A DNA stretch of 63,893 nt, filler included, from Candidatus Desantisbacteria bacterium CG1_02_49_89 (GTDB lineage: Bacteria > Desantisbacteria > UBA1551), in assembly GCA_001871075.1 (NCBI GenBank). It is 3 parts of 3 records of this genome, joined end to end, with 100 filler letters (N's around TTAATTAATTAA, not from the genome) between each part and the next. Parts side by side here need not be neighbours in the genome. Positions count along the whole stretch, not along the records: positions 31,589 to 58,336 come from MNUP01000010.1; 2 more parts are not named here. One strand, given 5' to 3'. Shown here in pieces: positions 17,401-60,853 of the stretch (position 1 is its first letter; every line of letters begins with the position of its first letter). Under the pieces are notes generated by a model. It had not been told where the DNA came from. It did no database searches and saw only the letters and a list, made by a program, of their open reading frames with translations. A program made the translations under genes and the position numbers.

Positions 17401-18369
17401 TTCAGAATACGGGCTGCTGATACATCACCGCTCGTAACAGCGGTCGCTTATGATTCAGGCGGGAACACTGACGTTTCGTTCAGCAGCACGGTAAGTTTAT
17501 TCACAAGCTCCAGTTCCGGGTCCTTCTCAGTGTCAACAACTCCATGGGCAGATACAAGCACGATCACGTTCCTTAATGGCTTCGGCTATTTCTACTACCG
17601 CGACAACGCTGTCGGTAATCCTGTGCTATCAGCTATGAGCTATGAGCTATCAGCTGACACACAGGTAGAAACAATAACTATACGGTACCTGCGATTCTCA
17701 AACACAACACCGTTCACCATAACAAGCATAAGTACCGCTCCGGTGTTCTTAAAAGCAGTAGATGGTTCTGGGAATACAGCGGTTCTCTTTAATGATACGG
17801 TCCAACTGCTTACCACATCAACAAAAGGTTATTTCTCCGTGTCAGGCACTACCTGGGTAAACACAAGCATCGTGTACCTCGTATCCGGCGGAAAGACCGT
17901 ATACTACAAAGACAAGATAGGCGGTAACCCTGTCATAACCGTGACCAGGACAGATTCCTGGACATGGACAGACACTCAACAGGAGACGGTTACAAAGCCA
18001 ACCGTTCTAACTTCTAAGGTTCAAATGAACGTTCGTTCAGGAGAAACAGGTTCAATGCCTATGAAATTCTGGGTTTCTGACACTGTTGAATACACTGTTT
18101 ACATTTCAAACACAGGCACAGAAACCGCGACAAACAACCTTATCGTTGACACAAGGTCTTTTGATACCAGCGTCAATAATCCTGTTGACTACATTTATAT
18201 GGACACTTCAGGTTTTGCTGACACCTGGGCATACACAACAGACCTTGTTTCCTGGACAACAGGCAATCCTGCTTCAGGCACTTCCAATGTCAAAGGCCTG
18301 CGCTGGAGAATAGATAGTCTTGGCATAAATCAAACCAAAGCCATAAGGTTCAGAGTAAGAGTGAAATAA
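5469..18369 (+). CDS. Giant (~4,300 aa) secreted modular protein: GH99-like/WbsX-type catalytic domain, 4 LamG domains, 4 CBM4/9-like domains, many Ig/invasin-like repeats, DUF11-like C-terminus. Apparent +1 frameshift at ~5571.
   Basis: ORF 5563-18369. GH99-like motifs VGVYYFPGW, PLLGWY, FCLLWANH, PGWDN, WNEFGEG (~7580-8545). LamG motifs W.FDEG...W.HV..TYD...LYVNG...DE.R.Y..AL. NPSFE..WFD.V modules. The signal peptide MKKSLSFFILGLL.. starts at 5469 in another frame. Confidence 0.8.
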
Positions 18370-18842: not shown

Positions 18843-19017
18843 AAAGCGTGTCAACGTATCAGCGTGTCAACGTATCAGCGCAGTAACAAGGATTTTTATT
18901 GTAACTCAGGGCTTCAGCCCTGATAAGCAGTTTAAATCCCGCTCGAAGATCCCTGTTGAAAATTATTTATCCATGGTAATCCGTGGCTAAAATATTTTAC
19001 AAAAAGGAGCATATGTT

Positions 19018-25451: not shown

Positions 25452-28322
25452 ATGGATATAATAGACTATATCAAGTATATTGAGAGGAACGATGAGAATG
25501 CGGTCTATATAGACTCCATCAAGGGCAACGAGGCGAAATACGGTGATGTTAAGCTGCACCCATCAATAAAAAAAGCCCTTGCATCCAAAGGCATAGAAAA
25601 GCTGTATTCGCACCAGGCAGAAGCCATAAGGCTCATAAGGGACGGCAGGAGCGTCGCTATTACAACTCCTTCGGCAAGCGGTAAAACGTATTGTTTTAAT
25701 ATCCCAATCCTGGAAACAATAATATCAGACCCGCAGGCAAAAGCGCTTTATATCTATCCCCTTAAGGCGCTCGCGCAGGACCAGCTTAAAAATCTTAATG
25801 AATTGGTTAAAAGTTTAAGGTTAAAGGTTGAAGGTTCAAACCAAGACTATGAGATAGCGAAGATATATGACGGGGATACGAATTCCTATCAGAGGACCAA
25901 GATAAAGAACGACCCGCCTAACATAATAATGACCAACCCCGACATGCTGCACCTGGGATTACTTCCTTTCCACGAACAGTGGTCCGGATTCTTCAGCAAC
26001 CTGAAATACGTAGTTATCGACGAAGCGCATTACTATTACGGAGTGCTTGGCAGCCACGTTGCCAACGTTATCAGGCGGCTGCGCAGGGTGCTGAAGCATT
26101 ACGGCGCCAACCCGCAGTTCATCGCGTGCTCAGCCACTCTTGCCAATCCGGAAGAATTCATCGAACGCCTTGCAGGCGTCCCTTTTTCCGCGGTGAAGGA
26201 AAGCGGATACCCCAATTACACCAAACACCTGGTTTTCTGGAAGACGACCGGAAGCGCCTACGCGGACGCCGAATCCCTGTTCAGCGAAAGCGTGAAAAGA
26301 GGGCTGAAAACGATCCTTTTCGCTAAGTCGCGCCTTGTCACCGAGCTCATACACACCTGGGTTAAGATGGGCGCCAGGACAGGCAAGGAAAAAGTAAGCG
26401 CTTACAGGGCGGGATACCTCGCGGACGAAAGAAGGGAAATAGAAAGCGAGCTGTTCGGCGGCAATATATCAGGCGTTATTTCCACAAGCGCTCTTGAGCT
26501 GGGCGTTGACATCGGGAAACTCGACGTGTGCATACTGCTGGGTTATCCCGGGAGCATGATGTCCTTCTTCCAGCGCATAGGCAGGGTGGGCAGGAGGGAT
26601 AAGGAATCGCTGGCGGTCATGATAGCCCTTGAAGAGCCGCTGAACCAGTACCTGATAGCGCACGCTGAGGATTTCCTCAAAAGAGAGGTTGAAGCGATAG
26701 TCGTCGATCCTTATAACAGGGAGATCTTCAAAAAGCATTTGCAGTGCGCGGCAAGCGAGGTTCCGCTGGAGGACGGCGATGACTGCTACGGGCAGAAAAT
26801 GCTCCCGGCGCTCAAGGAACTATGCAGAGACGGGCTTGTTGCCCAGTCAGACACCGGGACAAAATGGTTCAACCAGGGCAAGCGCCATCCGCAAAGGGAT
26901 ATAAGCCTGCGCAGCGTGGACGAGCAATACAGCATAATAGACGAGGGAACGGGAAAGACCATCGGGACCGCGGAGACGTCGCGGGTTTTTTACGAGTGCT
27001 ATGAAGGCGCGATATACCTGCACCGGGCGGAGCAATACCTTGTCAGGAAACTGGACTTCGCCAATAAGAACGTTTTGGCCGGGAAAGTCATTGTGGATTA
27101 TTACACGGGCGACCTCGGCAGGGAGGACATCGCGGTCCTCAGCAGGATAGGGTCAAGGCAGGCAGGCGGCCTGTCGCTGAACTACGGGGAGGTTATCGTT
27201 ACCAAACAGGTAACCGGATACGCGAAGAAGCAGTTAAGGACCGGAAGGCTCATAAGCAAACACGCGCTCGATATGCCCCCGCTGAAATTCACCACCAAGG
27301 CGCTGTGGCTTGAGATACCAAGCAGGTACAGCGAAGAACCCGATTTTCCCGGAGGCCTGCACGCGATAGAGCACGCGGTGATATCGCTCTTCCCGCTGTT
27401 CGTCCTGTGCGACAGGAACGACATAGGCGGGATGTCCACTCCCCTGGACACGGACACGGGTAAGCCGTGCATTTTCGTATACGACGCTTACCCCGGGGGC
27501 GTTGGGCTTGCGGAAACTGCCTATCACAGGATAGAGAACATACTGCGCGAGGCGTACAGGTTCATCGCGGGCTGCGAGTGCGATGACGGGTGCCCGTCCT
27601 GCATACAGGACCCCAGATGCGGCAACAACAACAAACCGCTGAGCAAGGATATGGCTTTGCGGCTCCTGGAAGGATGGACGCAGAACCTGGACGTGATGGA
27701 CCCGGCGTCAATGGATGACCGGGAAATAAAGGTCAGCCCGGTCAGGGCCGGAAAAATCAAGGCCGTGGAGGAAATAAAGATACCCGTAGACGAGATCCTG
27801 TTCTACGACCTTGAAACCCAGAAAAGCGCGGAGCAGGTAGGGGGATGGGATAACAAGCACCTTATGAAAATGTCGGTAAGTGTTGCGTGCTGCGGTTCCT
27901 GGAAGGAGAAATTCAGGGTTTACCGAGAAGAAGATATAAGGAAGCTCATGAAGGATCTGCGAGCCGCAAAACTGATAGTCGGCTTCAATATAATAAATTT
28001 TGATCTGGAAGTTCTGAGGCCCTATATGAATAACGGAGACCTGGACAGCCTCCCGGTATTTGACATACTTAAAACGGTTTATGAAAAGCTGAGGCGGCGC
28101 ATCAGCCTGAACAGCCTCGCGATGGCGACTCTTGAGAAGGGCAAGATGGCTGACGGCCTTCAGGCGATAACTTGGTTTGAGCAGGGCGATTTTGATAACC
28201 TTATAACTTACTGCAGGGCTGACGTGGAGCTTACCCGCGACCTGTTCAAGTTCGGCCGCGATAATGGGTACATAAAGTTCGAATACCAGTCTGAAAGGGT
28301 GAGATTGCCGGTGGAGTGGTGA
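25452..28322 (+). CDS. DEAH-box helicase with DUF1998 Zn domain fused to a C-terminal RNase H-like/DEDD exonuclease (MrfA/YprA + MrfB/YprB-like)
   Basis: SASGKT, TNPDMLH, DEAH, SAT, ALELGVDIG, QRIGRVGR, CECDDGCPSC..C, then FYDLETQ, GFNIINFD and YCRADV. Confidence 0.92.
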   Translation: MDIIDYIKYIERNDENAVYIDSIKGNEAKYGDVKLHPSIKKALASKGIEKLYSHQAEAIRLIRDGRSVAITTPSASGKTYCFNIPILETIISDPQAKALYIYPLKALAQDQLKNLNELVKSLRLKVEGSNQDYEIAKIYDGDTNSYQRTKIKNDPPNIIMTNPDMLHLGLLPFHEQWSGFFSNLKYVVIDEAHYYYGVLGSHVANVIRRLRRVLKHYGANPQFIACSATLANPEEFIERLAGVPFSAVKESGYPNYTKHLVFWKTTGSAYADAESLFSESVKRGLKTILFAKSRLVTELIHTWVKMGARTGKEKVSAYRAGYLADERREIESELFGGNISGVISTSALELGVDIGKLDVCILLGYPGSMMSFFQRIGRVGRRDKESLAVMIALEEPLNQYLIAHAEDFLKREVEAIVVDPYNREIFKKHLQCAASEVPLEDGDDCYGQKMLPALKELCRDGLVAQSDTGTKWFNQGKRHPQRDISLRSVDEQYSIIDEGTGKTIGTAETSRVFYECYEGAIYLHRAEQYLVRKLDFANKNVLAGKVIVDYYTGDLGREDIAVLSRIGSRQAGGLSLNYGEVIVTKQVTGYAKKQLRTGRLISKHALDMPPLKFTTKALWLEIPSRYSEEPDFPGGLHAIEHAVISLFPLFVLCDRNDIGGMSTPLDTDTGKPCIFVYDAYPGGVGLAETAYHRIENILREAYRFIAGCECDDGCPSCIQDPRCGNNNKPLSKDMALRLLEGWTQNLDVMDPASMDDREIKVSPVRAGKIKAVEEIKIPVDEILFYDLETQKSAEQVGGWDNKHLMKMSVSVACCGSWKEKFRVYREEDIRKLMKDLRAAKLIVGFNIINFDLEVLRPYMNNGDLDSLPVFDILKTVYEKLRRRISLNSLAMATLEKGKMADGLQAITWFEQGDFDNLITYCRADVELTRDLFKFGRDNGYIKFEYQSERVRLPVEW

Positions 28323-35376: not shown

Positions 35377-35439
35377 AAGATTACCTTAATAGTCTGAATA
35401 ATTAAAAAAATCTCGATTTTAAAATTTGAATTGTTTTAA

Positions 35440-35772: not shown

Positions 35773-35801
35773 TTACATTTTTAATTAAAACCAACTCTCA
35801 T

Positions 35802-37472: not shown

Positions 37473-37516
37473 TATGACTCCTCGATTACGGTGATTTTTA
37501 AAAATGATTACAGTGA

Positions 37517-37960
37517 TTATTTTAAATAAATTTTCAAATCGCTGAATCCGCCTTTTGCCGCACCTTCGTATGATACGGGCGCAGGATTATTTTTGTTGTC
37601 CCTGTCTGTTTCATAAGTTCTGGCAACGGATTCTCCCCTTTTTATCTCGCACTTCGCATCTATTGATACTCTGCCGCGCGGGAACGAGGGGGTTATCCTC
37701 GCGTTGTAAAATTTTATTTCCCTGTCACCTTCCATGCCTTTGAACACAACTTCCTCGATGATCTCCCTTCCTGTACCGCCGGCGGACGCTTCCAGGTCTT
37801 TCCAGATAAGTTTGACAGTAAGAACGGGTATTGAGCCTGCGGGGCATTCTTCAGGCAGGCATACCTTCCCGCCTGAGCTTATTGTCTGCGCCTGCTGGGC
37901 CCCGGCTGCGACAGAAAATACCATTAGAAACATTACAGACATTAAAAACATTTTATTCAT
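37517..37960 (-). CDS. Hypothetical secreted protein
   Basis: Signal peptide ending AGA, GGAGG RBS. Confidence 0.65.
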
Positions 37961-40038: not shown

Positions 40039-40149
40039 CTGTTCCTCCTTAAATACAGTATCAAAGTGTCAGAGTATCAAAGTATCAGAGTTTTAACACG
40101 CCAACACGACAGTTCTTCTGTTTTTCCGTTACACGTTACACGTGACACG

Positions 40150-40803
40150 TTACACGATGAACACAATGCCGACCGAGACCGCGCATTTGATGGAATCCGG
40201 GTCAACGCCGCGCGCCCCAACGGAATAAATATCCCATCCTGCTTTTGTCGCGGTGCGGAAAACGTCTATGCCAGCGCCTTCCATTGAAGGGCGGGATTTC
40301 AGCGGGAACCTGCACCTGCCGCTGTCAAGGGACTGGCAGTACTGGCCGCCGCACAGCGCTGTCTTGCACCCGCCCGCTCCGAAAGCTGTGGCGAAATAAT
40401 ACCCGTCGCTGAAAGCAAGCGATTCAACGCTGCTTCCGATCTCGTGGATCTTTCCCTGGTGGCGCATATGCCCCGCAAGCCACTGCTTGTCGCCAACGAA
40501 GTCCTCTTTGGGCTCAACTTCCGTTTTGAAAAGCACCGCGTATTTGAACTTCCGCAAGGTCCTTCTCATCTCTGAAACAGGCGGAACGTGGGGCGGGCAA
40601 TTCGCGCTTTCCCCGTAAAGGTGGCACCTTGGCACAGCGCACTTAAGCCGCACCCTGTCGTCGAAAGCGACAAAATAAGCAGGCACGACCTTCGCGGCCT
40701 TCGCGCCCAGGTCAATAGCCGCTTTCCTGTATTTCTCAAGGTCTTTTTTCAGCTGTTCTTTTGAAACCTTAAGAGTGATCTTCCTCGCCTTTATCTTTTC
40801 CAT
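40150..40803 (-). CDS. DUF2284 predicted metal-binding protein
   Basis: C..P.C..YG....CPP, GGC...C....C, CRFP..SRPSMEGAGIDV. Confidence 0.85.
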   Translation of the reverse strand: MEKIKARKITLKVSKEQLKKDLEKYRKAAIDLGAKAAKVVPAYFVAFDDRVRLKCAVPRCHLYGESANCPPHVPPVSEMRRTLRKFKYAVLFKTEVEPKEDFVGDKQWLAGHMRHQGKIHEIGSSVESLAFSDGYYFATAFGAGGCKTALCGGQYCQSLDSGRCRFPLKSRPSMEGAGIDVFRTATKAGWDIYSVGARGVDPDSIKCAVSVGIVFIV

Positions 40804-40936
40804 TTAGTACCTTTTCACCACAGAAGATATTGTAACCACGAATTTCCACTAATTTCCACGGATTTTTATATTATTTAATATCAAGCTTTTAGCATTTTAA
40901 ACTTAGTGAAAATTCGAGTTAATTCGTGGTTAAAAA

Positions 40937-41926
40937 TTAGTTTTGTCCTAGTTTTATTCCTTTTATAAGCGGGTGGCCGGCAAGGTATTCCTTCGCTGTC
41001 ATTACCCGCTTGCCTTCCGGCTGCAGTTCCAGGATCGAAAGAATGCCTTTGCCTGTGGAAATAAGGATCTCATCTGCTTTTATATCAATGATCTCTCCCG
41101 ATGGTTTTGCAAGGCTGAAGCCTTGCCCTACGTAAACCGATGATCTAAAGATCTTAAGGCGTTTGCCTTCTAAAAAAGTAAACGCGGAAGGTTCTGGATC
41201 CAGGCCCCTGATAAGGTTGTGTATTTCCTGCGCCGGCTTTGACCAGTCTATCCTGCAGTCCTCTTTCTTTATCACGGGCGCGAGGGAAAAACTGCCTTCT
41301 CCGAAGCTTTCGTTCGGAGTCCGTATTCCCCCGATGGACATCGGGGGACATCGGACCTGCTTCCTATAGGAAGCGCTGCCGGATTCAACCATCTTCAGGG
41401 TTTCGCACAGGAGCTGCACCCCTTCTAAAGACATCTTCTGCTCAAGGCTTCCCTTTGTATCGCCAGGCAGTATCTCCATTTCTTTCTGCAGGATCATGTC
41501 GCCGGTGTCTATGCCCTCGTCCATCCGCATCGTTGTCAGGCCTGTTTTTTTCATTCCCCTGATAACGCTCCAAGCGATCGGCTCAGGTCCCCGCAGCTCG
41601 GGGAGCAAAGACGCGTGCAGGTTAACACAGCCCTTTGCCGGGATTTTCAATATTTCCTTCGTTAGTATGTGGCCGCTCGCAACCACAACTATCAGGTCCG
41701 GCTTCAGTTCTTTCAGCCTGTCCGTGGCCTCGGAGATCTTTTCCGGCTGCAGGACAGGAATGCCCAGCTGTCCTGCCGCGAATTTCACGGGGGGCGCGGA
41801 GACCTTCATGCCCCTGCCCTTCGGTTTGTCGGGCTGGGTCACGACGCAGGCCACCCCATACGCCTTTGCTATCATGTTCAGGGACGGCAGGGCAAACTGC
41901 GGCGTCCCCATGAAAATAATCCGCAT
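40937..41926 (-). CDS. fmt: Methionyl-tRNA formyltransferase, with two repeat-derived in-frame inserts
   Basis: IFMGTP.FA, VTQPDKPKGRG, NLHASLLP..RG..PI, GIDTGD, LQPEGKR. Confidence 0.96.
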   Translation of the reverse strand: MRIIFMGTPQFALPSLNMIAKAYGVACVVTQPDKPKGRGMKVSAPPVKFAAGQLGIPVLQPEKISEATDRLKELKPDLIVVVASGHILTKEILKIPAKGCVNLHASLLPELRGPEPIAWSVIRGMKKTGLTTMRMDEGIDTGDMILQKEMEILPGDTKGSLEQKMSLEGVQLLCETLKMVESGSASYRKQVRCPPMSIGGIRTPNESFGEGSFSLAPVIKKEDCRIDWSKPAQEIHNLIRGLDPEPSAFTFLEGKRLKIFRSSVYVGQGFSLAKPSGEIIDIKADEILISTGKGILSILELQPEGKRVMTAKEYLAGHPLIKGIKLGQN

Positions 41927-42102
41927 CCAACCTCCGGAAGATGCTAGATCCTAGATCCTGGATCCTAGATCCTGGATGAAGGAGTTTATTTTAATAATTC
42001 CTTAATCTAGGATCTAACATCCCCGCCCTGAAACCTTAGGGCGAGGCTCGCCCAGGCATAGGCCATGGGCGGCAGCATCCAGGATCTGCATTTAGCGATA
42101 AG

Positions 42103-42708
42103 CTATTTCAGGGGAGTAATTTTTACTTCAGAAAACTTGGCTTCGGTGTTTTCGCCTTCAACGTGGCTTGTCACGGCAAGGCCTGCGAGCACGCTCTTGC
42201 CCATGCTTATCTCGATCTCTCCCGCCTCGTTCCACTTCTTGCCGTCGCTTGACCAGGATCCGGCGAACTTGCCGCCTGTCTTTTTCATCTTCAGGTATAT
42301 CGGATATGAAAACTCGCCTGCTTCAACGTGCTGGCTCATATCGTTTTCTTCGGGCCTGTACTGGAACGCAAGGCCGTGCTGGGGAGTTGCGACCAGCATC
42401 GCGTGCTTTGAGCCCGGTTCTGCGCTCTCTCGTATCATAACACCTGCTTTTGACCATTCAAAAACTTCTTTCAGACTGCTTATCTTCGCGGACACCTCGA
42501 AATTGCCGCTCATCTTCTGGTAAACGAACCTGAAGCCGTCTGCCAGGTCCCAGATGTCAAGGCCGCCCGCTTCCACGACAATGGAATCCTTTCCCATTAT
42601 GGTCTTGCCGCCGCTTGTCCCTATGTCCTTGCTTTCCCAGTTCTCCGCGGCTGTCAGAACACCTGCCGCGCAAACCAGCACCGCCAGTAACAATACGCTC
42701 TTTTTCAT
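42103..42708 (-). CDS. Secreted concanavalin-like (DUF1349-type) domain protein
   Basis: Signal peptide, GLDIW...D.F.FVY, WSKAGVMIRES, GLAVTSH. Confidence 0.75.
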   Translation of the reverse strand: MKKSVLLLAVLVCAAGVLTAAENWESKDIGTSGGKTIMGKDSIVVEAGGLDIWDLADGFRFVYQKMSGNFEVSAKISSLKEVFEWSKAGVMIRESAEPGSKHAMLVATPQHGLAFQYRPEENDMSQHVEAGEFSYPIYLKMKKTGGKFAGSWSSDGKKWNEAGEIEISMGKSVLAGLAVTSHVEGENTEAKFSEVKITPLK

Positions 42709-42823
42709 GCTACCCCCTGTTCTCGTGCGTCGTGCTTCGTTCTTCGCACATCGTTAAAATCTCAGTGTTTTCAGTGCCTTCAGTGGCAAAACTGTGTTAA
42801 CCTGTGTTCACCTGTGGTTAATA

Positions 42824-44134
42824 TTACTTCGTAGTGGCGATCTTCAGGGTCCTGCGCGCAAGGTCCGAGATCTTCGCCCTGAAAAGGGATTCATTGCCGC
42901 TCACCACAGTGCTGGAAAGCGTGTCGTTCAGGGGCGCGATCCATTTCTGCGGAAGGTTTTTCGCCCCAAGCATTGCTCCGGCGACGGAACCTGTTGTCGC
43001 GCCGTTGCAGTCCGTGTCAAGCCCGCACATTACGGCAATCGATATGGTCTTTTCAAAATCCCCTTTTCCGTAAAGCAGGCCCAGCAGCACGATGCACGCG
43101 TTATTTATCGTATGCACCGGGTGGTAATGCCCGTATTTCTCCATCATTTTTTTAAACGCGCCTTCCCATGAAGTTATTTCCGCGCTCCACTTTACCATGT
43201 CCTGCACTGCTTCGTAAAGCCTTGAAGTGCGGGGGATCTGGCTTGAGCCTATCCTTATTATCTCTTCCAAGCTTGAAACCGAAAAAGCCGCCGCTATCAT
43301 TGCCGCTACGAACATTTCACCGTATATGCCGTTTTTCACGTGCGAGAGCGAGGCTTCCCTGAAAGCGAGTTCTGCCGCCTGCAGGGGTTTCCCGGGAGAC
43401 GCATAACCCCAGAAATCCGCCCTGATCTGCGCGCCTATCCATTCCCTGTAGGGATTATGGAAGAGCGGGACCTCGTCAATATGCAAGCCGTTCGCAAGGT
43501 TCAGGTACGCCTGCCTTTCCGCGGTGCAGACGTGGAAGAACGGAAGCGAATACAGCCAGAAATTGCCCACGTCCGATGTGGTAAAATTCAATCCCTTTGA
43601 CTCGGCTATCAGAAGGCCCGCGGTAGTGTAATTAATATCGTCGTCAGGCTCCATGTACTGGATATGCTCCCTGGTAGACGCGGGGCACATTCCTTTTACC
43701 TCGGTTCCCTCTTTGTCCAGCGATTTCTCGGGGAAGTAGTTGTCAAGCGGGTATGCCGCCGCGTTTTTCAGGTATATCCTGATATTTTCCTCTGTCCATC
43801 CCTCGACCGGTTTGCCCAGGGCGCATCCGGCGCACCTGCCCAGCCACGCGCCGTAGATCCTGTCATAGAGCTCCTCTTCAGAAAACCTCATCGGGAGGAT
43901 ATCCCTTCTCAAAGCAGGCCTTTTCCTCAGGATACGGTTAAAATCTGAAGGTTCCTTATAGGGGAAATCCTTTTTAGGCTTGAGGCGCATTAACTTCCTG
44001 TAAACGCCCGCCCTTGCCTTGTCATCCTTTGCCCTTGCAGCCATTTCTGAAAAACCCGATATATCGCAGCCCTCTTCCTGGCGCTGCTTCAGCTCTTCTT
44101 TTAAAAGATTCTGCACGTTCGTCCATCCGGCCAA
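42824..44134 (-). CDS. ADP-ribosylglycohydrolase family protein
   Basis: GAWLGR.AG.ALG.PVE, DDDINY, IGAQIRAD, CGLDTDCNGAT.G. Confidence 0.9.
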   Translation of the reverse strand: MAGWTNVQNLLKEELKQRQEEGCDISGFSEMAARAKDDKARAGVYRKLMRLKPKKDFPYKEPSDFNRILRKRPALRRDILPMRFSEEELYDRIYGAWLGRCAGCALGKPVEGWTEENIRIYLKNAAAYPLDNYFPEKSLDKEGTEVKGMCPASTREHIQYMEPDDDINYTTAGLLIAESKGLNFTTSDVGNFWLYSLPFFHVCTAERQAYLNLANGLHIDEVPLFHNPYREWIGAQIRADFWGYASPGKPLQAAELAFREASLSHVKNGIYGEMFVAAMIAAAFSVSSLEEIIRIGSSQIPRTSRLYEAVQDMVKWSAEITSWEGAFKKMMEKYGHYHPVHTINNACIVLLGLLYGKGDFEKTISIAVMCGLDTDCNGATTGSVAGAMLGAKNLPQKWIAPLNDTLSSTVVSGNESLFRAKISDLARRTLKIATTK

Positions 44135-44160
44135 TTTTCCTCCTATCTTTTTTAAATAAA

Positions 44161-44263
44161 ATTATGAGTTACGAGTTATGAATTATGAATCAACTGCATG
44201 GTATTAAATTTAAATAGAACTCCTTGTTTTTGACTCATAATTCATCATTCATAATTCATAATT
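44161..44263. repeat. TTATGA(A/G) heptamer-armed fold-back element. Copies at 28331-28488, 29355-29567, 46942-47036, 52131-52225; partial at 60685 and 62044.
   Basis: Tandem TTATGAA/G arm, conserved AT-rich core, inverted (T/C)TCATAA arm. Confidence 0.85.
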
Positions 44264-45209
44264 AATCTTTGATATGCAAAACATAGTCTTTTAAAAGATC
44301 CTGGGCGCTGTTGCTGACCCCGGATCTGTCAAGGTCATATAAAGCTTTGCGCAGATATTCCGTGCCGATCGCTTCTGAATGGCGCAACGCGCCTGTTTTT
44401 TCTATGAGAACGCGCATACCGGACGCTCCTTTTTTCCCCGCGCCAAGGGCAAGGACGAAAGGAAGCGTCTTCTTGTTCTTTTTAAGGTCGCTCTGTATAT
44501 GAAGGGAACGGCTGCCTTTATCGCCGAAGCCCGAGATATCGTTAAAAATCTGGAACGCCATTCCCGCGTTAGCCCCGAAACTTCTGTAGCATTTAATTAT
44601 CCCGCAGTTTTGGGTTGAAACAAGAGCGCCTGAAACAGGGGCGGATTCAATAAGCGCGGCTGTTTTCTCCCTTATCATCCGCAGGTATTCGCCTATTCCT
44701 ACCCGGGCTCTTTTTTCAAAGGACAAATCGAGCATCTGGCCTTCACACATACGGTAGCAGGCAGAATTAACCGCAGAGGATACAGAGTTGATAACAGCCG
44801 GCTTCAGGCCTGAATCAAAAAGACCTGAAAGGGCAAGGCCTACCAGCGCATGCATCGCGTCCCCGGCGTTGATAGCCTGGTTCGCGCCCCACTTCCTCCA
44901 GACCGTCTGCCTGCCGCGCCTGAATTCGTCCCCGTCCTGTATGTCGTCGTGGATAAGCGAAAAATTATGTATCAGTTCTATCGCGACTGCCGCGGGAAGC
45001 GCTTTTTTATAGCTGCCGCTGATCGCTTTTGCGGTTAGCAGACACAGAACGGGTCTGAATCTTTTACCCTGAGCTCCAGTGGATTGGTTTTTCAGCAAAC
45101 CCAACTGGTATCCAAGCATCTCCCCGGCAATAGGGATATCGCAGAATTTCTTCAGCGTTATGGTAATTTCCCTGTTTATCTCATCCCTTAATTCATTTAT
45201 AAGTTTCAT
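44262..45209 (-). CDS. Polyprenyl diphosphate synthase family protein
   Basis: GKRFRP, LIHDDIQDGDEFRRG, GQMLD, KTAAL, K.TLP. The second Asp-rich motif is degenerate. Confidence 0.9.
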   Translation of the reverse strand: MKLINELRDEINREITITLKKFCDIPIAGEMLGYQLGLLKNQSTGAQGKRFRPVLCLLTAKAISGSYKKALPAAVAIELIHNFSLIHDDIQDGDEFRRGRQTVWRKWGANQAINAGDAMHALVGLALSGLFDSGLKPAVINSVSSAVNSACYRMCEGQMLDLSFEKRARVGIGEYLRMIREKTAALIESAPVSGALVSTQNCGIIKCYRSFGANAGMAFQIFNDISGFGDKGSRSLHIQSDLKKNKKTLPFVLALGAGKKGASGMRVLIEKTGALRHSEAIGTEYLRKALYDLDRSGVSNSAQDLLKDYVLHIKD

Positions 45210-45263
45210 ATTTTGGTATTTTTTCGTGATTTCGTGGTACTTTCGTGTTTTCGTGGAAATCAG

Positions 45264-46892
45264 TTAAATCAGTTTCGCGTATTTCGCCAGATACCCGGTT
45301 TTTACCTTCGGCGCGGGAGCCTTCCATTTCGCGAGCCTTGCCCTGATCTCCTTTTCACTTAAGACAAGGTCGAGTTTACGGTTTTTGATATCGATGTTTA
45401 TCCTGTCCCCGTTCCTGACAACCGCGATCGGTCCGCCGACCGCTGCTTCCGGCGCCACATGGCCGATGCAGGGGCCCTGCGTGCCTCCGGAGAACCTTCC
45501 GTCCGTAATGAGCGCGACGCTTTCCCCCATCCCCATTCCCGTAAGCACGGCAGTAACCGAAAGCGTTTCCGGCATTCCGGGAGCGCCCTTATCGCCTTCG
45601 TAACGTATAATGACAACGTCCCCTTTTTTGATCTTCCTGCCCATGACAGCTTTCATCGCTTTTTCTTCCCCGTCAAAAACCCGGGCGCGGCCCGTGAATT
45701 TCCACATTTTAGAGCTAACGGCTATCTGCTTGACAACCGCTCCTTCAGGCGCAAGGCTCCCGAAAAGAATAGCTATCCCGCCCTCTTTATGGTACGGGTT
45801 TGATCTATTGTGTATGACCGCGGAATTCAGCACCCTGCCTTTCCGCGCGACCTCCAGTATGCCCCTTCGGCCGTTCACCGTAGGCGAAGGCTTAAGCCCG
45901 TCTTTCAGGACATTTAAAATCGCCGGTATGCCTCCCGCATATTCCAGGTCCTCAAGAAAATATTCGCCGCTGGGGCGCAGGTTTATGATATGGGGCGTGG
46001 ACCTGCTGACCTTGTTGAAAACTTCAAGTGGCAGGTCTATATCCAGCTCTTTCGCGATGCGCGTAAGATGGAGGACAGTGTTTGACGAACCTCCCAGAGC
46101 CATATCAACTTTAATCGCGTTAAGGAGCGCGTTTTTTGTCATTACGCTCCTGGGCAGTATATTTTTCCTGACCATCTCCACGACTCTTTCGCCGCTTTCC
46201 TTGGCGATCCTTTTCTTTCTGGCTGAAACCGCAAGCGCGGTGGCGCATCCCGTGAGTGACATTCCCATTGTTTCCGTGATGCAGGACATAGTGTTGGCGG
46301 TGTAAAGGCCCTGGCAGGAACCGAAACCCGGGCATGCTTCCATCTCAAGTTCATCCAGCTCTTCCCCGGAGATCTTACCGGCTTTCGCCCTTCCCACTGC
46401 CTCAAACGTGTCGTGAACAAGGTCAAGCCTGATCGTGCCTTTGTACCTGCCGCAAAGCATGGGCCCTGCGGTGACGACAACGGTCGGTATGTTCAGGCGC
46501 GCGGCTGCAATAAGACAGCCGGGCGTGATCTTATCGCAGTTTGTGAGCAGCACAAGGCCGTCGAAACAGTGCGCCCCTGCGACAGATTCGATAGTATCCG
46601 CGACTATTTCCCTTAAAGGGAGCGAATACCTCATTCCCTTGTGGCCCATGGCGATGCCGTCGCAGATGCCCGGGATCCCGAAGATGAACGGCACGCCGCC
46701 GCCGGAGCATACTCCCCGCTCTATGAACCTTTCAAGCTCGCGCATCCCAACATGCCCGGGGATAATATCAGTGAAGCTTGACGCTATGCCGATGAACGGC
46801 TTTTTCATGTCCGATTTCGAAATGCCCGTTGCGTAAAGCAGCCCGCGGTTCGGGACCCTTTCTATTCCTTTTTTAACTGTATCTGACCGCAT
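45264..46892 (-). CDS. ilvD: Dihydroxy-acid dehydratase
   Basis: [48 protein letters not shown]. Confidence 0.97.
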
Positions 46893-47029
46893 TTATTTCC
46901 TCCTTAGTCCGTTGGATTAATAATCGTCGGAAAAGTTATAAATTATGAGTTATGAATTATGAATTAACTTCATGGTATTAAATTTAAATAAAGATCCTTG
47001 TTTTTGACTCATAACTCATCATTCATAAT

Positions 47030-47893
47030 TCATAATTGGGGTTGAATCGATGAGTGTATGTCCGGTTCCCTGACATAAACCGGCTTTAATCTAAAAAGAT
47101 CGTCGCCCTTCCTGTTCTTCTGCAATTTCCTGTAACCTTCAAAAGCAATAGTGCCTGCTTTCGGGCGCCACAGTTCTTCAGGCGCGAATATTGCCTTACC
47201 GCCGAGTTTTTCTTTTATCGCGTCCCCGTATATCCTTACTGCATTGCCGATAAATACCGTCGGACGTCGGACGTCGGACGTCGTAAGTAAATTCAGTAAA
47301 TCCTCAATGCTTAATACTGAATCTTTCATTACTTTTCTTAACTTTGAGCTTCTGTCCTGTATACTTATACACTTATCCACTTGTCCACTTATCAACTTGT
47401 TCCCTTGTAAACTTGTAAACTTGTAAACTTGTAAACTGTATAAGGAAGTATAGACCTGCTGTTTCCTCGCGTCCGTTATCACGCATATTTTAAATCCCCC
47501 GCCATCCCCCCTTTCATAAAGGGGGGTAAGAGGGGATTTTTCATTTTTTTTGCTGGATACCGCATTTAAAGCAATCACATCCAGCGTTCCCACGGCTACT
47601 ATCGGAACATCCAACGCCTGCGCGAGCGCTTTCGCTGAAGCCACTCCAACGCGCAGGCCCGTGTAACTGCCCGGGCCAATGGATACGGCAACAGCATTGA
47701 TGTCCCGGATCTTCAGCTTGTTTTTTTTCAGGATCCTGTCAATGAAGAATACCAGCTTGGAGGAATGCTCCCGGGGAGTTCTTTCGCTTGTTTCATCAAG
47801 TAATCTACCGCGGTCAGCCAGGCCAACGCTGCAGTATTCCCCGCTTGTATCGATCCCAAGAACTACGAAGCATTTTTTGACGCTGATTTTCAC
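47030..47893 (-). CDS. tsaB: tRNA t6A biosynthesis protein TsaB, with three repeat-derived inserts
   Basis: LGIDTS, HS..L, GPGSYTGLRVG, DARK..VY, P.YVR. Start uncertain. Confidence 0.93.
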   Translation of the reverse strand: MKISVKKCFVVLGIDTSGEYCSVGLADRGRLLDETSERTPREHSSKLVFFIDRILKKNKLKIRDINAVAVSIGPGSYTGLRVGVASAKALAQALDVPIVAVGTLDVIALNAVSSKKNEKSPLTPLYERGDGGGFKICVITDARKQQVYTSLYSLQVYKFTSLQGNKLISGQVDKCISIQDRSSKLRKVMKDSVLSIEDLLNLLTTSDVRRPTVFIGNAVRIYGDAIKEKLGGKAIFAPEELWRPKAGTIAFEGYRKLQKNRKGDDLFRLKPVYVREPDIHSSIQPQL

Positions 47894-48007
47894 TGATTTT
47901 CTCTGTGCCCTTGGTAATAGTATTAAAAGACAGTTTACTGAGTTTATAGAGTTTACATAGTTTACAAAGTGTAAACCGTGATAATCTGTGACAATCTGCG
48001 TCTAAAG

Positions 48008-48490
48008 TTATTTCGTACTTTCCTCGCCCATCCTTTCCAGGTGGGCGAAGTCTCGCCCGCTGTAAGACGGACGGAGTGATTTCGTGGAAATCAGTAATTC
48101 TCTTTTATTTTTGCCTAAGATCTCAATTTTTATTCTAACGCATTCCGCCGGCAGCAGTTCTTTCAGCCTTTCCGCCCATTCGATGACCGCTGCGCCGTCA
48201 CCGTAAAAAAATTCTTCATATCCCAGCGCGCGGACATCATCCGTGCTGTTAAGGCGGTACAGGTCAAAGTGGTAAAGAGGTATCCTGCCCTTGTATATGC
48301 TCATGAGCACGAACGTGGGACTTATTACCTTGCCTTTGACACCCAGGCCTTTTGCCAGGCCCTGGATGAACGTGGTCTTGCCGCTTCCGAGGCTCCCTGT
48401 CAGGCAGAGTATATCGCCGGCTTTCAGTTTTTTAGCAAAGCCCTTAGCAAATTTTTGTGTTTCTTTCGCACTGTTTGTTATTATTTTCAT
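48008..48490 (-). CDS. tsaE: tRNA t6A biosynthesis ATPase TsaE, with a repeat-derived C-terminal tail
   Basis: G.LGSGKTTF, SPTF, HFDLYRL, IEW. Confidence 0.96.
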   Translation of the reverse strand: MKIITNSAKETQKFAKGFAKKLKAGDILCLTGSLGSGKTTFIQGLAKGLGVKGKVISPTFVLMSIYKGRIPLYHFDLYRLNSTDDVRALGYEEFFYGDGAAVIEWAERLKELLPAECVRIKIEILGKNKRELLISTKSLRPSYSGRDFAHLERMGEESTK

Positions 48491-48549
48491 TTTTTATGAT
48501 TGCAATGATTTCTTTAACTTTCAACCTTCAACCTTTAACCTTTAACTTT

Positions 48550-49338
48550 TTAGCCTGCCGCTGCGCGCTTCCCTTCTTCCGATAAAAGGAAACAAGGGTC
48601 TTCTTCAAGCTTTCTAAGGGTAAAATCCATCATTTCTCTTGCCTTGATAAGCTTTAAAGATGCGTTACCGGACAGGCCGGCTTTCATTATTCCCCGGCTG
48701 AGCAACAACGGTTCCATCTTCGGAAAATCCCGCACGATCCCGTAACGGTGTATTTTTGTCCTGGCAATGATCTTCCTGCCGCTTCTATCTATTATAACGG
48801 CATCCACAGGTTCCGGCTGTAACTGGTAATCAACCCCGGCAAGCTCTTCCGCGCAGTGGAACGTGGTAAAACAAGCCAGCCCGATGCCTATCATAAGCAC
48901 GTAACCGTTATCCGCTGAACATAATTTGTCGTAAGGGCTGCCCTTGCCGCACGGCGTGCTGCAGAGCTGGTGGCCTTCTGTCAGAAATTCCGCCTGCCTG
49001 CCTATTGCCGCGACAGAATGCGTGGGGCCCAGGCTCCTGACCGCGTTTTTCCTTTTCCTGAAGGTCTCGGGGATCGTCCCTGTCCAGCAGGGAGTATTCA
49101 GAACATCGAACACAGGCGGGCTGGCAGCTGTCAGCTGCGCAGAACCTGTCAGGGTCGGCACCAAAACGGTTCCGCTCGCGCCAACCGTTTCTATTAAAGA
49201 GTCTATGACGGCATCCGCCCCGCCTTCCACCCAGCCGAAGCTTTTCAAAGAACTGTGGACGAGAACATTTGATCCTTCTTTTAGCCCGGTATTTTCAACA
49301 AGATCCCTTTTTATTTCCTGCTTTGTTATTATATTCAT
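48550..49338 (-). CDS. AAC(3)/Antibiotic_NAT family N-acetyltransferase
   Basis: VLVHSSL..FG.V.GGA, GT.LVPT, G.IPE.FR, RS..PTHS, T.FH.AE. Confidence 0.88.
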   Translation of the reverse strand: MNIITKQEIKRDLVENTGLKEGSNVLVHSSLKSFGWVEGGADAVIDSLIETVGASGTVLVPTLTGSAQLTAASPPVFDVLNTPCWTGTIPETFRKRKNAVRSLGPTHSVAAIGRQAEFLTEGHQLCSTPCGKGSPYDKLCSADNGYVLMIGIGLACFTTFHCAEELAGVDYQLQPEPVDAVIIDRSGRKIIARTKIHRYGIVRDFPKMEPLLLSRGIMKAGLSGNASLKLIKAREMMDFTLRKLEEDPCFLLSEEGKRAAAG

Positions 49339-49421
49339 AACGGGATTACGGTGATTATTAACTACTGATTACGGTGATTTTAGAATAGATTACGGTGATT
49401 ATAAATAAAAAATTGCGGTGA

Positions 49422-50567
49422 TTAAAAGTGCGAGAAGCCTAAATTTTTAGCGGTTCTCTTTCTGCCCTTATTGTCAATGATAAAAAGACTTTTGTCTTTT
49501 ATGATCTCGCCGACTGCCGTAACAGGAGTGCCGGTCAATCTTGGCACCAATGCCAGGACCTTCTTTAATTTAGCCGGCGGGACAGTGAAAACAAGCTCGT
49601 AATCCTCACCGCCTGTCAGTACTAACTTACGACTTACGACGTACGACGTACGACGGATAAGTTGCTCTGAAACAGGGATCATGTCTTCATGGATCTTGGC
49701 GCCTGTGCCGGATTCCTGGCAGATGAACCCAACCGAAGCAAGAAGCCCGTCGCTTGAATCTATCATTGCGGTTGCCAGCTTGTTCTTAGCGATTATCCCC
49801 GCCTCTTTTACTCTTGGGCTTGGCATTAAATGCCTTTTTATAAGATATTCGTGGTTTTGGCGATGCACGATGCACGATGCACGATGAACGGTTTTTTTAA
49901 GGAGCTCAAAGCCAGCCGCGGAGTCGCCGCAGGACCCTGTTACGCAGATCATATCTCCGGGCCTGGCACCCTTGCGCAGAAGAAGGTTCTTCTTTTCAAC
50001 TTCGCCGATCACGGTCGTATCTATTATTAAAGAATCCGATTTGCTGATATCACCGCCGATAACCTGAACGCCTTTACTGCAATGGGACAGTCCCTCCCGA
50101 TGACCATCGGGATGGGACAGTCCCTGACCTGCGGCGTTCATCCCGCGGTATAGATCATCTATGAATCCAACGTCTTCTTTACCTGTCAATCCCAGCGTTA
50201 CAAGCGCGTATTTTGGCTTCCCGCCCATTGAAGCGATGTCGCTCATGTTTACAGCCATCACCTTCCATCCTAACATGAACCCGTACGACGTACGACCCGC
50301 AAGGGCGACGTACGACGGCAAACGGGCAAGGAAATGCACGCCCTCAATAAGGATATCGGTAGTCCAAAGTAAACATTTACCGCGGGAAATTGGAATAACG
50401 GCAGTATCATCGCCAATTCCGATCAAACCACGTGTAACGTGCCCGCTCCGATTTATATCGGGGCGAGGTCTCGCCCCGACTGACGTCGGGGCGGATAACG
50501 TGTTACGTGTAACGCGGCTACGGATGCGGTCAATGAGCCCAAATTCCCCTAAATCCTTGATTTTCAT
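49422..50567 (-). CDS. thiL: Thiamine-monophosphate kinase, with five repeat-derived inserts
   Basis: GEFGLI, GIGDD.A, TTD.L.EGVHF, N.SDIA.MGG.P, IGGD, DSSDGL, GGEDYEL.FT. Confidence 0.96.
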   Translation of the reverse strand: MKIKDLGEFGLIDRIRSRVTRNTLSAPTSVGARPRPDINRSGHVTRGLIGIGDDTAVIPISRGKCLLWTTDILIEGVHFLARLPSYVALAGRTSYGFMLGWKVMAVNMSDIASMGGKPKYALVTLGLTGKEDVGFIDDLYRGMNAAGQGLSHPDGHREGLSHCSKGVQVIGGDISKSDSLIIDTTVIGEVEKKNLLLRKGARPGDMICVTGSCGDSAAGFELLKKTVHRASCIVHRQNHEYLIKRHLMPSPRVKEAGIIAKNKLATAMIDSSDGLLASVGFICQESGTGAKIHEDMIPVSEQLIRRTSYVVSRKLVLTGGEDYELVFTVPPAKLKKVLALVPRLTGTPVTAVGEIIKDKSLFIIDNKGRKRTAKNLGFSHF

Positions 50568-50635
50568 ACGAGTTTAACCACAGGTTAACACAGTTTAACA
50601 CAGTTTAGATACATCAGGGCTGAAGCCCTGAGTTA

Positions 50636-50689
50636 TCCGCCCCGATGTCAGTCGGGGCGAGACCTCGCCCCGATATAAATCGGGGCGGG
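50636..50689 (+). mobile_element. Double-hairpin micro-element, family A. Other copies: 30117-30168, 42022-42072, 48023-48075, 50442-50495, 56973-57024, 60766-60812.
   Basis: Consensus TCCGCCC-x-GGGCGAGACYTCGCCC-y-GGGCGRG. Empty target visible at 18845-18925 (reverse). Confidence 0.8.
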
Positions 50690-50748
50690 CAATAAAATTC
50701 CTTGTTGTTGCGTTGACACGTTGATACGTTGACACGCTGACACTGCAT

Positions 50749-51393
50749 TTAAAGAAGGCCGCGCAGTTCTTCGACTTTCGGAAGATCCGAAAGGTCTTTA
50801 AGCCCGAAATAAACAAGGAATTCGTCGGTGGTCCGGTAAAGGAGCGGCCGACCGAGTACTTTCTTACGGCCCGCTATTTTTACCAGCTTCTTCTCAAGCA
50901 GGCCGTGCAGGACTCCGGACGTATCAAGGCCCCTGAGCGCCTCTATCTCCGCCCTTGTGATCGGCTGTCTGTAGGCTATGATGGCAAGGGTCTCAAGGGA
51001 CTGCTTGCTCAATTTAGCAAGGTTCTTGGAAGCGTAAAGCATTTTTATCCAGGGCGCGTATTCGTGTCGCGTGCACATCTGGTAGCCCTCTGCGATCTCA
51101 ACTATCTTGAAGCTGTGCCCCCTGCTGTCGTATTCCTGTATCAGTTCGGAAGCGAGCTTTCTTGCTTCTTCCGGGGTTATGCCTATAAGCTTTCCTATCC
51201 TTTCGGGAGTAAGGGGGCTGTCCGATACGAAAAGAAGGCTTTCTATGACGGATTTCAGGGGCAGTTCCTGCGGCGATTCGGCGGCCTGCGCCTCTTCCTT
51301 CTTCTCCATTCCGACCCCGGGAGTCGGAACGGTTTGTTTTTCCTGGTCCTGCGCGTCTTCAGTTATGTTGTCATCTGTTTTATTCTCTTCCAT
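50749..51393 (-). CDS. scpB: Segregation and condensation protein B
   Basis: IESLLF, LSKQSLETLAIIAYRQPITRAEIE..RG, GRP.LY.TT..FL..FGL..L.DLP. Confidence 0.96.
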   Translation of the reverse strand: MEENKTDDNITEDAQDQEKQTVPTPGVGMEKKEEAQAAESPQELPLKSVIESLLFVSDSPLTPERIGKLIGITPEEARKLASELIQEYDSRGHSFKIVEIAEGYQMCTRHEYAPWIKMLYASKNLAKLSKQSLETLAIIAYRQPITRAEIEALRGLDTSGVLHGLLEKKLVKIAGRKKVLGRPLLYRTTDEFLVYFGLKDLSDLPKVEELRGLL

Positions 51394-52112: not shown

Positions 52113-52231
52113 CTTTTCTCCAGAAAATCAATTATGAATTATGAATGCTGAGTTATGAATCAACAGCAAGGATTTTAATTTAAATTAACTCCTTGATTCA
52201 TAATTCATAACTCATAATTCATAACTATCTG

Positions 52232-56234: not shown

Positions 56235-56951
56235 TTATTTTCCCGATGTCCTTATCAGCTCCAAAAACGCCTCTTCCAGGGTCTCTTTTCCTGTCATTGA
56301 CCTTATCTCGCCTGGCCTGCCCTCCGTGAGCAGCTTGCCTTCCCTGAGGAAACCAAGCCTCGCGCACTTCTCCGCCTCGTCCATCTGGTGGCTGGATATA
56401 AGTATTGTCACGCCTTCTTTTGCCAGGCGGTTGAAGTAATCCCAGAATGAAACCCTTAAAGCCGGGTCAATCCCGACAGTGGGCTCGTCCAGCAAAAGCA
56501 GCTTCGGGCTGTGCGCCAGGGCGCACGCGAGAGACACCCTTTTCTTCGTGCCGCCGCTAAGGTTCCCGACAAGCTCGTCCGCTTTATCAGACAGCTCAAG
56601 CAGGTCAAGAAGCTCTGTTATTTTCTTTTTCAGTGCGTTCCTCTCAACGCCGTAAAGCGCGCCGAAAAACGATATGTTCTCCCTTACTGTAAGATCTATA
56701 TACAGGGACTCGCTCTGGTTCATGTACCCGATCTGAGCGGCTTTCTTGAAGGGATTAGCGCTTCCCATAACACTGATCGTTCCCGATGTAGGAAGGAGCA
56801 CACCGACTATAATGCGGATAAGGGTTGTCTTGCCTGAACCGTTAGGCCCCAGCAGTCCGTAGAGCTCACCCTCTTTTATCTCAAGGTTCAGCCCGTCCAG
56901 CGCCTTCACGCCGCCAAAATTCTTTTTAAGGTTCTCAGTTTTTATAACCAT
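56235..56951 (-). CDS. ABC transporter ATP-binding protein
   Basis: GPNGSGKTT, LSGG, LLLDEPT.G.DP, SH. ATG 56951 preferred because the upstream sequence is repeat. Confidence 0.95.
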   Translation of the reverse strand: MVIKTENLKKNFGGVKALDGLNLEIKEGELYGLLGPNGSGKTTLIRIIVGVLLPTSGTISVMGSANPFKKAAQIGYMNQSESLYIDLTVRENISFFGALYGVERNALKKKITELLDLLELSDKADELVGNLSGGTKKRVSLACALAHSPKLLLLDEPTVGIDPALRVSFWDYFNRLAKEGVTILISSHQMDEAEKCARLGFLREGKLLTEGRPGEIRSMTGKETLEEAFLELIRTSGK

Positions 56952-57157
56952 ACAAGATTTCCACGAAATCACTCCGCCCGTCTTTCAGCGGGCGAGACTT
57001 CGCCCACCTGAAAGGATGGGCGAGGAAAGCACGAAAAGATTCAGCCACGGATTTCCACGGATTTCAACTTTGTATATAAACTTGTGTACTTGTAAGCTAT
57101 ATTTAAATTTCAACTTTTAAAATTTACAATTTGAAATTTGCAATTTGCAATGTTTTC

Positions 57158-58336: not shown

Positions 58337-58436
58337 NNNNNNNNNNNNNNNNNNNNNNNNNNNNNNNNNNNNNNNNNNNNTTAATTAATTAANNNNNNNN
58401 NNNNNNNNNNNNNNNNNNNNNNNNNNNNNNNNNNNN
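58337..58436. other. Artificial contig linker
   Basis: N-run + TTAATTAATTAA + N-run. Confidence 0.97.
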
Positions 58437-60666: not shown

Positions 60667-60853
60667 AATTTCTCCATATATTCAATTATGAATTATGAGT
60701 TATGAATGAAGGAATCAGGGCTCCCTCCCAACAAGATTGGCGGGTCTTCGAGAAGCCCTGAGTTATCCGCCCCGATGTCCATCGGGGCGAGACCTCGCCC
60801 CAAAGGGGCGGGCAATAGATTCCTTGCAGTTGCGTTGATACATTGACACGCAT

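Follow-up and report, generated by a model that had tools for sequence, protein, structure and literature searches.

Short palindromes and heptamer arrays within conserved genes of Candidatus Desantisbacteria, including a candidate mobile hairpin in thiL

Results

A 54-nt hairpin in thiL with a defined target site

The genome of Candidatus Desantisbacteria bacterium CG1_02_49_89 (assembly GCA_001871075.1) contains very short dispersed repeats that lie between genes and also in frame inside them, and among these a palindromic element of 54 nucleotides (nt) in thiL appears to be mobile. The DNA analyzed here, a stretch of 63,893 nt referred to as the window, consists of three contigs joined by N linkers (31489-31588 and 58337-58436, each flanking a TTAATTAATTAA spacer), and adjacency across these joins is not real. 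The repeats belong to several families in two groups, GC-rich palindromes of 16-54 nt and tandem arrays of 7-10-nt units. We consider it probable that these are short selfish repeats which proliferate between genes and are kept within genes where reading frame and protein fold allow, and that at least one hairpin family is mobile.

The 54-nt element in thiL is identical at 52 of its 54 positions to an inverted intergenic copy located 141 nt away (Table 1). The intergenic copy folds into a single long hairpin with an internal loop (-24.8 kcal/mol, z-score -6.5), resembling the inverted doublet of a REPIN, while the thiL copy (-21 kcal/mol, z -4.8) carries substitutions that weaken the outer stem relative to it; the element is built of hairpins throughout. 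GTTA precedes and CA follows the element in three of three copies (thiL, 50636-50689 and 60766-60812), none of which shows a target-site duplication, and a precise empty site is present at 18890-18912. Each of the two copies between genes splits the arm of a TCAGGGCT palindrome, which occurs nine times in the window against 0.92 expected, and in five of those palindromes the arm continues uninterrupted past GTTA. With the element taken out, thiL reads as an unbroken run of CGTTACA units; the heptamer array thus came first and the hairpin second. The canonical unit of this array equals that of an intergenic array at 40127-40156. Four sequencing runs also contain contigs in which 2-5 other letters connect these flanks where the element would be, the matching sides being only 22 nt long.

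The TCAGGGCT..AGCCCTGA palindrome module, whose arm ends in GAGTTA, was observed at 2666, 5026, 18902, 24461, 29450, 30414, 50625, 54845 and 60755. At 29450 and 54845 other hairpin blocks directly follow GTTA. Hairpins of more than one family may thus insert preferentially at this junction.

Repeat families shared by genes and spacers

Tandem arrays were surveyed with Tandem Repeats Finder (period 7-10, at least 2.5 copies), which recovered 63 arrays of 7-10-nt units in the window, 47 of them intergenic, 13 in coding sequence (CDS) and 3 at gene edges, with 44 distinct units in 64 kb. Arrays covered 14.0% of the 10,957 intergenic bases versus 0.81% of the 52,760 CDS bases, and many genes had an array beside the start or stop codon. 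Perfect arrays with a period of 7-10 and three or more copies numbered four in CDS, each of them in tsaB or thiL, and were absent from all of 20 dinucleotide shuffles. Hairpins (stem 8 or longer, loop 8 or shorter) numbered 16 in CDS (shuffle mean 5.8, maximum 10) and 23 in the spacers (shuffle mean 2.0, maximum 5), and the palindrome CCCGA-N(1-9)-TCGGG had 10 matches, half of them in CDS; the expectation was 0.88, and none of 100 shuffles gave more than 3. Nesting is seen among the palindromes, which apparently grow outward.

Comparison of spacers with CDS by blastn gave 23 high-scoring segment pairs, against 1-5 for spacers shuffled five times. The strongest matches were to thiL at 50440-50499 (E = 6e-25), the tsaE tail (9e-21), an array in a helicase gene (3e-8), an array in a giant gene (3e-5) and the inner hairpin of the fmt linker, which matches an intergenic hairpin (1e-4). 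Four array units (ACGACGT, ACGATGC, AACGTGT and AAAGGTT in canonical form) each occur in at least one gene and at least one spacer, and loci separated by tens of kb share identical units. Judged by these matches, the genic repeats are of the same families as the intergenic ones, as an initial annotation of this DNA had proposed. The sites it had listed could all be located in the sequence (two in fmt, three in tsaB, the tsaE tail, five in thiL, one in scpB, one in the helicase and three in the giant gene), and the nesting of families that it described is evident in thiL, where the 54-nt palindrome sits within a heptamer array within the gene.

Stop codons apparently act as a filter on the units that occur in genes. 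The commonest spacer unit, AATTATG, contains stops on both strands and was not seen in genes, and the helicase and giant-gene arrays have unit variants exactly where a perfect unit would make an in-frame stop. Flanking direct repeats of at least 8 nt were present at 1 of 63 hairpin clusters compared with 1.1 at random positions, and the possibility that the arrays are accumulated target duplications around hairpins was rejected on this result. A scan of viral contigs for the central hairpin gave 0 matches, and an Rfam scan of the window returned two tRNAs only.

Two further spacer families were noted. A composite element of about 105 nt, in which an AATTATG array and an inverted CATAATT array enclose a conserved core of about 45 nt, sits between tandem genes at 28330-28488, 29353-29566, 44160-44274, 46936-47037, 52130-52226, 60684-60707 and 62043-62087; it is the most repeated family (11 Tandem Repeats Finder arrays), with the highest depth spikes (about 30-fold) and a weak fold (z -1.8). 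Arrays of 22-23-nt units (GATTACGGTGATTATT type) lie at 32349-32396, 37484-37526 and 49344-49424, just upstream of three minus-strand genes including an acetyltransferase-like gene, and many run contigs end or diverge at them.

Inserts in ThiL and TsaB

Alignment with orthologs from outside the lineage delimits the inserts most clearly in two enzymes. ThiL has 381 amino acids (aa) against a median of 339 in 109 outside orthologs, and TsaB 287 against a median of 230 in 68. ThiL aa 24-44, 82-91 and 150-164 and TsaB aa 117-133, 158-183 and 206-209 fall in columns that are filled in fewer than 20% of these sequences. The 36 columns invariant over 115 ThiL sequences and the 8 invariant over 80 TsaB sequences include the proteins of this organism, and all reading frames are open; the claim that the frames stay open and the key residues are kept was borne out, and the outside orthologs are without the inserted segments.

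AlphaFold2 models of ThiL and TsaB had a mean predicted local distance difference test score (pLDDT) of 87.5 and 88.3, respectively, with drops to below 50 or to 50-75 only at the inserts: below 50 at ThiL aa 27-34 and 36-45 (site 1) and at 161-163 (site 3), and 55 and 49 for the blocks spanning aa 161-180 in the second TsaB insert. In these models the ThiL and TsaB inserts are low-confidence loops and probably disordered. Site 3 of thiL folds at -18.1 kcal/mol (z -5.3), and its aa 150-164 are absent in more than 80% of outside ThiL. The first tsaB insert weakly matches an intergenic hairpin at 18381-18401. The second accounts for 26 aa missing from outside TsaB, of which 13 are unique even among 11 close relatives.

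The remaining two thiL sites are different in kind. The unit of site 4 is shared with an array at 19872-19903 and that of site 5 with an intergenic array at 3808-3869, and the model places site 5 in helices 301-306 and 309-318 with a block pLDDT of 91-93. The suggestion in the initial annotation that the repeats add new peptide loops thus stands for three sites each in ThiL and TsaB and fails for ThiL aa 227-235 and 304-313 and for the tsaE tail. A library search with the 31-aa peptide of the thiL insert gave 3 matches, all unrelated repetitive proteins, and was uninformative either way.

Repeats in other genes

The minus-strand genes in 40937-51393 are fmt, a DUF1349 protein gene, and genes for an ADP-ribosylglycohydrolase and a polyprenyl synthase, followed by ilvD, tsaB, tsaE, an aminoglycoside 3-N-acetyltransferase-like gene, thiL and scpB. 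In Fmt the Pfam N domain ends at aa 176 and the C domain begins at aa 219, and the linker between them has about 17 residues extra relative to PDB 4iqf. The similarity of TsaE to Bacillus subtilis TsaE stops at aa 135, and the DNA that encodes the tail aligns with copies at 56950-57070 and 30095-30190; on these alignments the tsaE case is a replaced C-terminal tail and not a loop. The tail copy carries one extra G at 48037 relative to the two intergenic copies, which shifts the frame in which the element is read, and this G is missing from most multi-copy contigs in four runs.

The unit of the helicase array is also found at 25236 and 48512, its variants avoid in-frame TAA, and the array adjoins an 8-residue gap in PDB 6znp. 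In the giant-gene array a G-to-C variant makes TCA from a would-be in-frame TGA; of the two weaker sites in this gene, that at 16175-16190, with a 6-nt period, may be ordinary coding repetition. The giant gene (5563-18369) encodes a 4268-aa protein with Big_1, Invasin_D3, Laminin_G_3 and WbsX glycosyltransferase domains and has many internal repeats of 11-25 nt arising from its domain repeats. Elsewhere in the window, GC content falls to 37-40% in 32001-36000 compared with about 50% in the rest, and a 541-aa HEAT-repeat protein with internal DNA repeats is encoded inside this stretch (33751-35376).

Table 1. Positions of the repeat elements, their genic sites and reference copies, counted along the window.
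Feature	Position	Strand	Description
thiL site 1	50442..50495	-	54-nt palindromic REPIN-like element, in frame, about aa 25-42, inside CGTTACA array
CGTTACA/CGTAACA heptamers 5' of the thiL 54-nt element	50496..50519	-	Tandem Repeats Finder array 50496-50514; 3' continuation 50425-50441
Intergenic reference copy of the 54-nt element	50636..50689	+	Inserted in arm of TCAGGGCT palindrome
47-nt variant of the 54-nt element	60766..60812	+	Between GTTA and CA of a paralogous module
Empty paralogous site	18890..18912	-	GTTA directly joined to CAAT; right-flank homology
thiL site 2	50283..50316	-	GTCGTAC heptamers around small GC hairpin, aa 83-96; aa 82-91 absent in >80% of 109 outside ThiL
thiL site 3	50084..50124	-	Three-tier nested palindrome, 13-nt direct repeats around CCCGATG..CATCGGG, aa 147-162
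thiL site 4	49861..49890	-	CATCGTG x3.7-4.3, aa 227-235; only 2 residues in low-occupancy columns; not a net insertion
thiL site 5	49628..49655	-	CGTCGTA x4, aa 304-313; not a net insertion
tsaB insert 1	47492..47539	-	Nested palindrome, aa 117-133; fold z -3.6; absent in >80% of 68 outside TsaB
tsaB insert 2	47358..47443	-	8-nt unit arrays (sense TTTACAAG and variants), aa 158-183
tsaB insert 3	47258..47283	-	Perfect heptamer array (CGTCGGA on + strand), aa 203-211; aa 206-209 in low-occupancy columns
tsaE C-terminal tail	48011..48094	-	About aa 133-160 plus stop codon, encoded by dispersed element of about 80 nt; blastn E 9e-21
Intergenic copy of tsaE-tail element	56987..57064	+	Further copy 30131-30181
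fmt interdomain linker	41299..41374	-	Three adjacent hairpins, about aa 185-210; fold z -4.7
fmt C-domain palindrome	41109..41126	-	18 nt, aa 267-272; 4-residue gap in 4iqf there
scpB N-terminal extension	51309..51329	-	21-nt near-perfect palindrome, aa 22-28; candidate family member; Pfam ScpB match begins aa 49
MrfA/YprA-type helicase	25805..25840	+	Imperfect GGTTAAA heptamer array, aa 119-130; matches intergenic arrays, E 3e-8
Giant gene	17625..17655	+	AGCTATG-type heptamer array; matches intergenic 62112-62139, E 3e-5
Giant gene, weaker sites	17313-17336 and 16175-16190		

Inserts in relatives and support from independent samples

For both ThiL and TsaB, the best hits that carry a name belong to Candidatus Desantisbacteria (46-53% identity). 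Among close relatives of the same lineage, 5 ThiL (366-415 aa) and 11 TsaB (247-315 aa) have inserts in the same loops that differ in sequence and length. One relative has a single copy of a 17-aa unit in one TsaB variant (P0132) and two copies in another (P0133), a nearly identical peptide occurs in the ThiL of the same relative (P0007), and three tandem copies of the unit stand at the N-terminus of a GTP cyclohydrolase I, ahead of the likely true start; these last copies are probably an upstream spacer array read as protein by the gene caller. The search with the repeat peptide of P0133 gave 9 candidates and 4 matches, covering proteins of 173-552 aa in the same frame. The differing inserts and the distribution of the 17-aa unit suggest that the phenomenon is lineage-wide and still changing. 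Separately, a motif S-T-x-Y-R-V-Q was seen at two insert sites within one TsaB (P0134 and P0130, relatives), suggesting that one repeat family entered two TsaB loops. A search of genome contigs with ThiL found 7 loci, the best at 38% identity and none from this lineage, and a scan of metagenome contigs with a six-sequence ThiL alignment found at least 80 loci, at no more than 41% identity among the matches listed.

DNA of the window is present in 24 sequencing runs of groundwater or aquifer origin, which belong to 23 studies. Contigs of four other runs cover thiL (48520-50477), fmt (40900-41952) and tsaB (47009-48543) with 0 gaps and 0-2 differing letters, so that independent assemblies support the sequence at the inserts, and the in-gene repeats are not an assembly artefact. 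Of the refuting observations that the initial annotation had named, neither orthologs with the same segments nor unspanned inserts were thus encountered. Logan contigs stop at some repeats, for example at 47410-47432 and 50477. Summed contig depth rises 10-30-fold in repeat-containing bins, suggesting that the repeat sequences are multi-copy in the samples, although other organisms may contribute to this rise.

Discussion

A proposed course of events

In the reading that we favor, the repeats would multiply mainly in spacers, and some copies would land or grow inside genes. Those that survive there would be the ones that keep the frame, are free of stops and occupy permissive places such as surface loops, interdomain linkers and termini, and they would be translated as extra, probably disordered, peptide segments. 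Survival restricted to permissive places points to a mostly neutral effect, that is, 'selfish DNA in genes'. The 54-nt element would be a discrete non-autonomous mobile element that inserts after GTTA and before CA without target duplication, and the likeliest driver would be a single-strand HUH enzyme (IS200/IS605 TnpA or RAYT-type) encoded elsewhere in the genome. The thiL target was supplied by the heptamer array, which implies one repeat built on another, and the arrays themselves would most likely expand via replication slippage after seeding. The initial annotation had inferred a non-autonomous mobile system for the repeats as a whole; this is upheld for one hairpin family, with its fixed target, lack of duplication and filled and empty sites, while the heptamer arrays may be products of slippage.

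A bolder extension is that a self-reinforcing system for remodeling loops operates in this candidate phylum, in which loop-seeded arrays give GTTA/CA sites to an HUH-moved 54-nt hairpin, and fast turnover leads to loops specific to species or sister strains. New peptide segments would then keep arising naturally by this route, rather than through a rare mishap. We regard this as possible and somewhat doubtful.

Several observations weigh against the favored reading. The target signature is seen in one hairpin family only, in three copies, and because two of these lie in paralogous modules they are perhaps not independent events; the third, in thiL, is so near its inverted intergenic counterpart that it could have arisen through a local template switch. 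Among the 42 open reading frames (ORFs) of the window we found neither a transposase nor an HUH domain, as the initial annotation had also reported of mobilizing genes. The scarcity of direct repeats around hairpin clusters fits a duplication-free mechanism and gives the other hairpin families no positive support. 'Insertion into loops' does not fit every site, given that two arrays in thiL add no net sequence and one of these lies in a confident helix. Moreover, the inserts of relatives are known as peptides alone, and no indels at in-gene arrays were present among the matches listed in four runs, in contigs that drop rare variants; ongoing slippage at these arrays is conjectural. The translation of the inserts, their neutrality, the HUH enzyme and the slippage of arrays are our inferences.

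Alternative explanations

The same facts can be arranged without any mobile element, with slippage producing the arrays, template switching plus ectopic gene conversion producing the hairpins, a lineage weak in repeat suppression, and the genic copies as local by-products. Inverted copies 141 nt apart have the geometry of a template switch, 44 array units in 64 kb, often locus-specific, fit local slippage, the palindromes are nested and seemingly grown outward, and a transposase is lacking from the ORFs of the window. This account is rather unlikely in our judgment, for it would also have to produce three copies with identical boundaries between GTTA and CA, one of them on another contig segment, together with a clean empty paralogous site, array units shared by loci tens of kb apart, and a 17-aa unit in three unrelated genes of one relative.

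It seems improbable that the repeats are functional sites tolerated in genes (for binding of nucleoid or regulatory proteins, or for mRNA structure or processing), or that the loops were selected for function. The insert sequences are not conserved among relatives and are predicted to be disordered, the thiL copy of the 54-nt element has lost pairing in its outer stem compared with the intergenic copy, and element orientation relative to transcription varies; these points stand against the placement of arrays beside the start and stop codons of many genes, which recalls the TAACTGA repeats as far as they are described in the available part of the source (PMC4679880), and against the presence of some insert in the same ThiL and TsaB loops of every close relative. 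We give almost no credence to artefact or decay, namely repeats mis-assembled into the genes of a metagenome bin, or pseudogenes. The window does concatenate contigs of an uncultured organism, and Logan contigs do break at some repeats; yet contigs from four other runs reproduce the inserts, homology resumes in frame on either side of each insert, the invariant residues are retained, and relatives assembled elsewhere show the same phenomenon.

Comparison with known repeat systems

The Rickettsia palindromic elements (RPEs) are the best-known case of in-frame 'selfish DNA' within genes. They are described as about 150 bp long, encoding a conserved peptide each, and inserted in frame in unrelated metabolic genes in a manner compatible with the fold (PMC10969869; here and for the other papers cited in this section, the comparison covers the part of the source that was available). 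The repeats reported here resemble RPEs in entering unrelated housekeeping genes in frame (thiL, tsaB, fmt, tsaE and the helicase gene), and differ from them in consisting of 16-54-nt units and 7-10-nt arrays, in the nesting of families, in peptides that are different between relatives, and in having up to five sites in one 381-aa enzyme.

For the 54-nt element the closest parallel is single-strand transposition in the IS200/IS605 family, in which IS608 inserts at TTAC and leaves a sealed, duplication-free empty site (PMC5027513). The element likewise lies 3' of a fixed tetranucleotide, with no duplication and a sealed empty site, its own target being GTTA followed by CA. It also has the form of the repetitive extragenic palindromes (REPs) and REPINs, as the palindromes are short, imperfect, in excess and mostly extragenic, and the 54-nt element is an inverted doublet folding into one long hairpin; this is a likeness of form, not of sequence relatedness, and unlike REPs, which are extragenic by name, copies here lie inside essential genes. 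IS200/IS605 systems include a Y1 HUH transposase (TnpA) that recognizes subterminal hairpins at the element ends, and REP systems a RAYT gene flanked by its REPs; the window has no RAYT or TnpA gene among its 42 ORFs.

Among long simple sequence repeats, the TAACTGA repeats of Beggiatoaceae and cyanobacteria are 7-nt units, mostly intergenic and often next to start codons, with rare, stop-filtered occurrences within ORFs (PMC4679880). The arrays of the window are similar in the dominance of tandem 7-nt units, in being longer than chance and in their mostly intergenic location. In-ORF TAACTGA repeats are described mostly at protein ends and in hypothetical proteins, with one dominant unit, although the supplementary tables of that paper may list more; here, the arrays comprise 44 units in 64 kb, and some of them fall within the cores of ThiL, TsaB and the helicase. 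The TAACTGA array itself is at chance level in the window, with 1 match at 2 mismatches that 22 of 100 shuffles equal. The commonest heptamer family at 29365-29378 reads TAACTCA on the other strand, one base per unit away from TAACTGA, and is this chance-level match.

Nostoc and other cyanobacteria reportedly have hairpin repeats of 21-27 nt, the small dispersed repeats (SDRs), which Elhai and colleagues are said to have described in 2008 as inserting into each other and occasionally into genes. The nesting seen here is like that reported for the SDRs; the phylum and the sequences are different, and in-frame heptamer arrays and density per enzyme appear greater here. Palindromic or hairpin repeats are also known from organelles, as in sponges and in the GC clusters of yeast. 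In Volvox organelles, short selfish palindromes bloat the spacers and are described as intergenic and intronic, not coding (PMC2670323), whereas here the genome is cellular and copies are also found in coding sequence. Literature searches on Desantisbacteria or on heptamer repeats yielded no description of such repeats for this lineage. The idea is thus less unprecedented than the initial annotation had implied, since comparable systems are already described: the outcome is RPE-like and the insertion signature IS200/IS605-like, while unit sizes, in-frame microsatellites, nesting and density per enzyme differ. What is new, as judged from the sequence, is the recognition of the first insert in thiL as a discrete palindrome of 54 nt with a defined target and an empty paralogous site.

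Implications

For annotation, the inserts lengthen proteins and give odd C-terminal tails and false N-terminal extensions in metagenome bins. For the biology of this free-living, uncultured lineage, an RPE-like outcome would be reached from far smaller units and from microsatellites of 7 nt, a length expected to disrupt reading frames under ordinary conditions, and each relative carries inserts of its own in these loops. If the pattern is confirmed across the genome, the inserts would offer a natural map of insertion-tolerant positions in conserved enzymes and a case of repeat families building on each other within genes, and the 54-nt element would be a tractable unit with a defined target and a handle for finding its enzyme.

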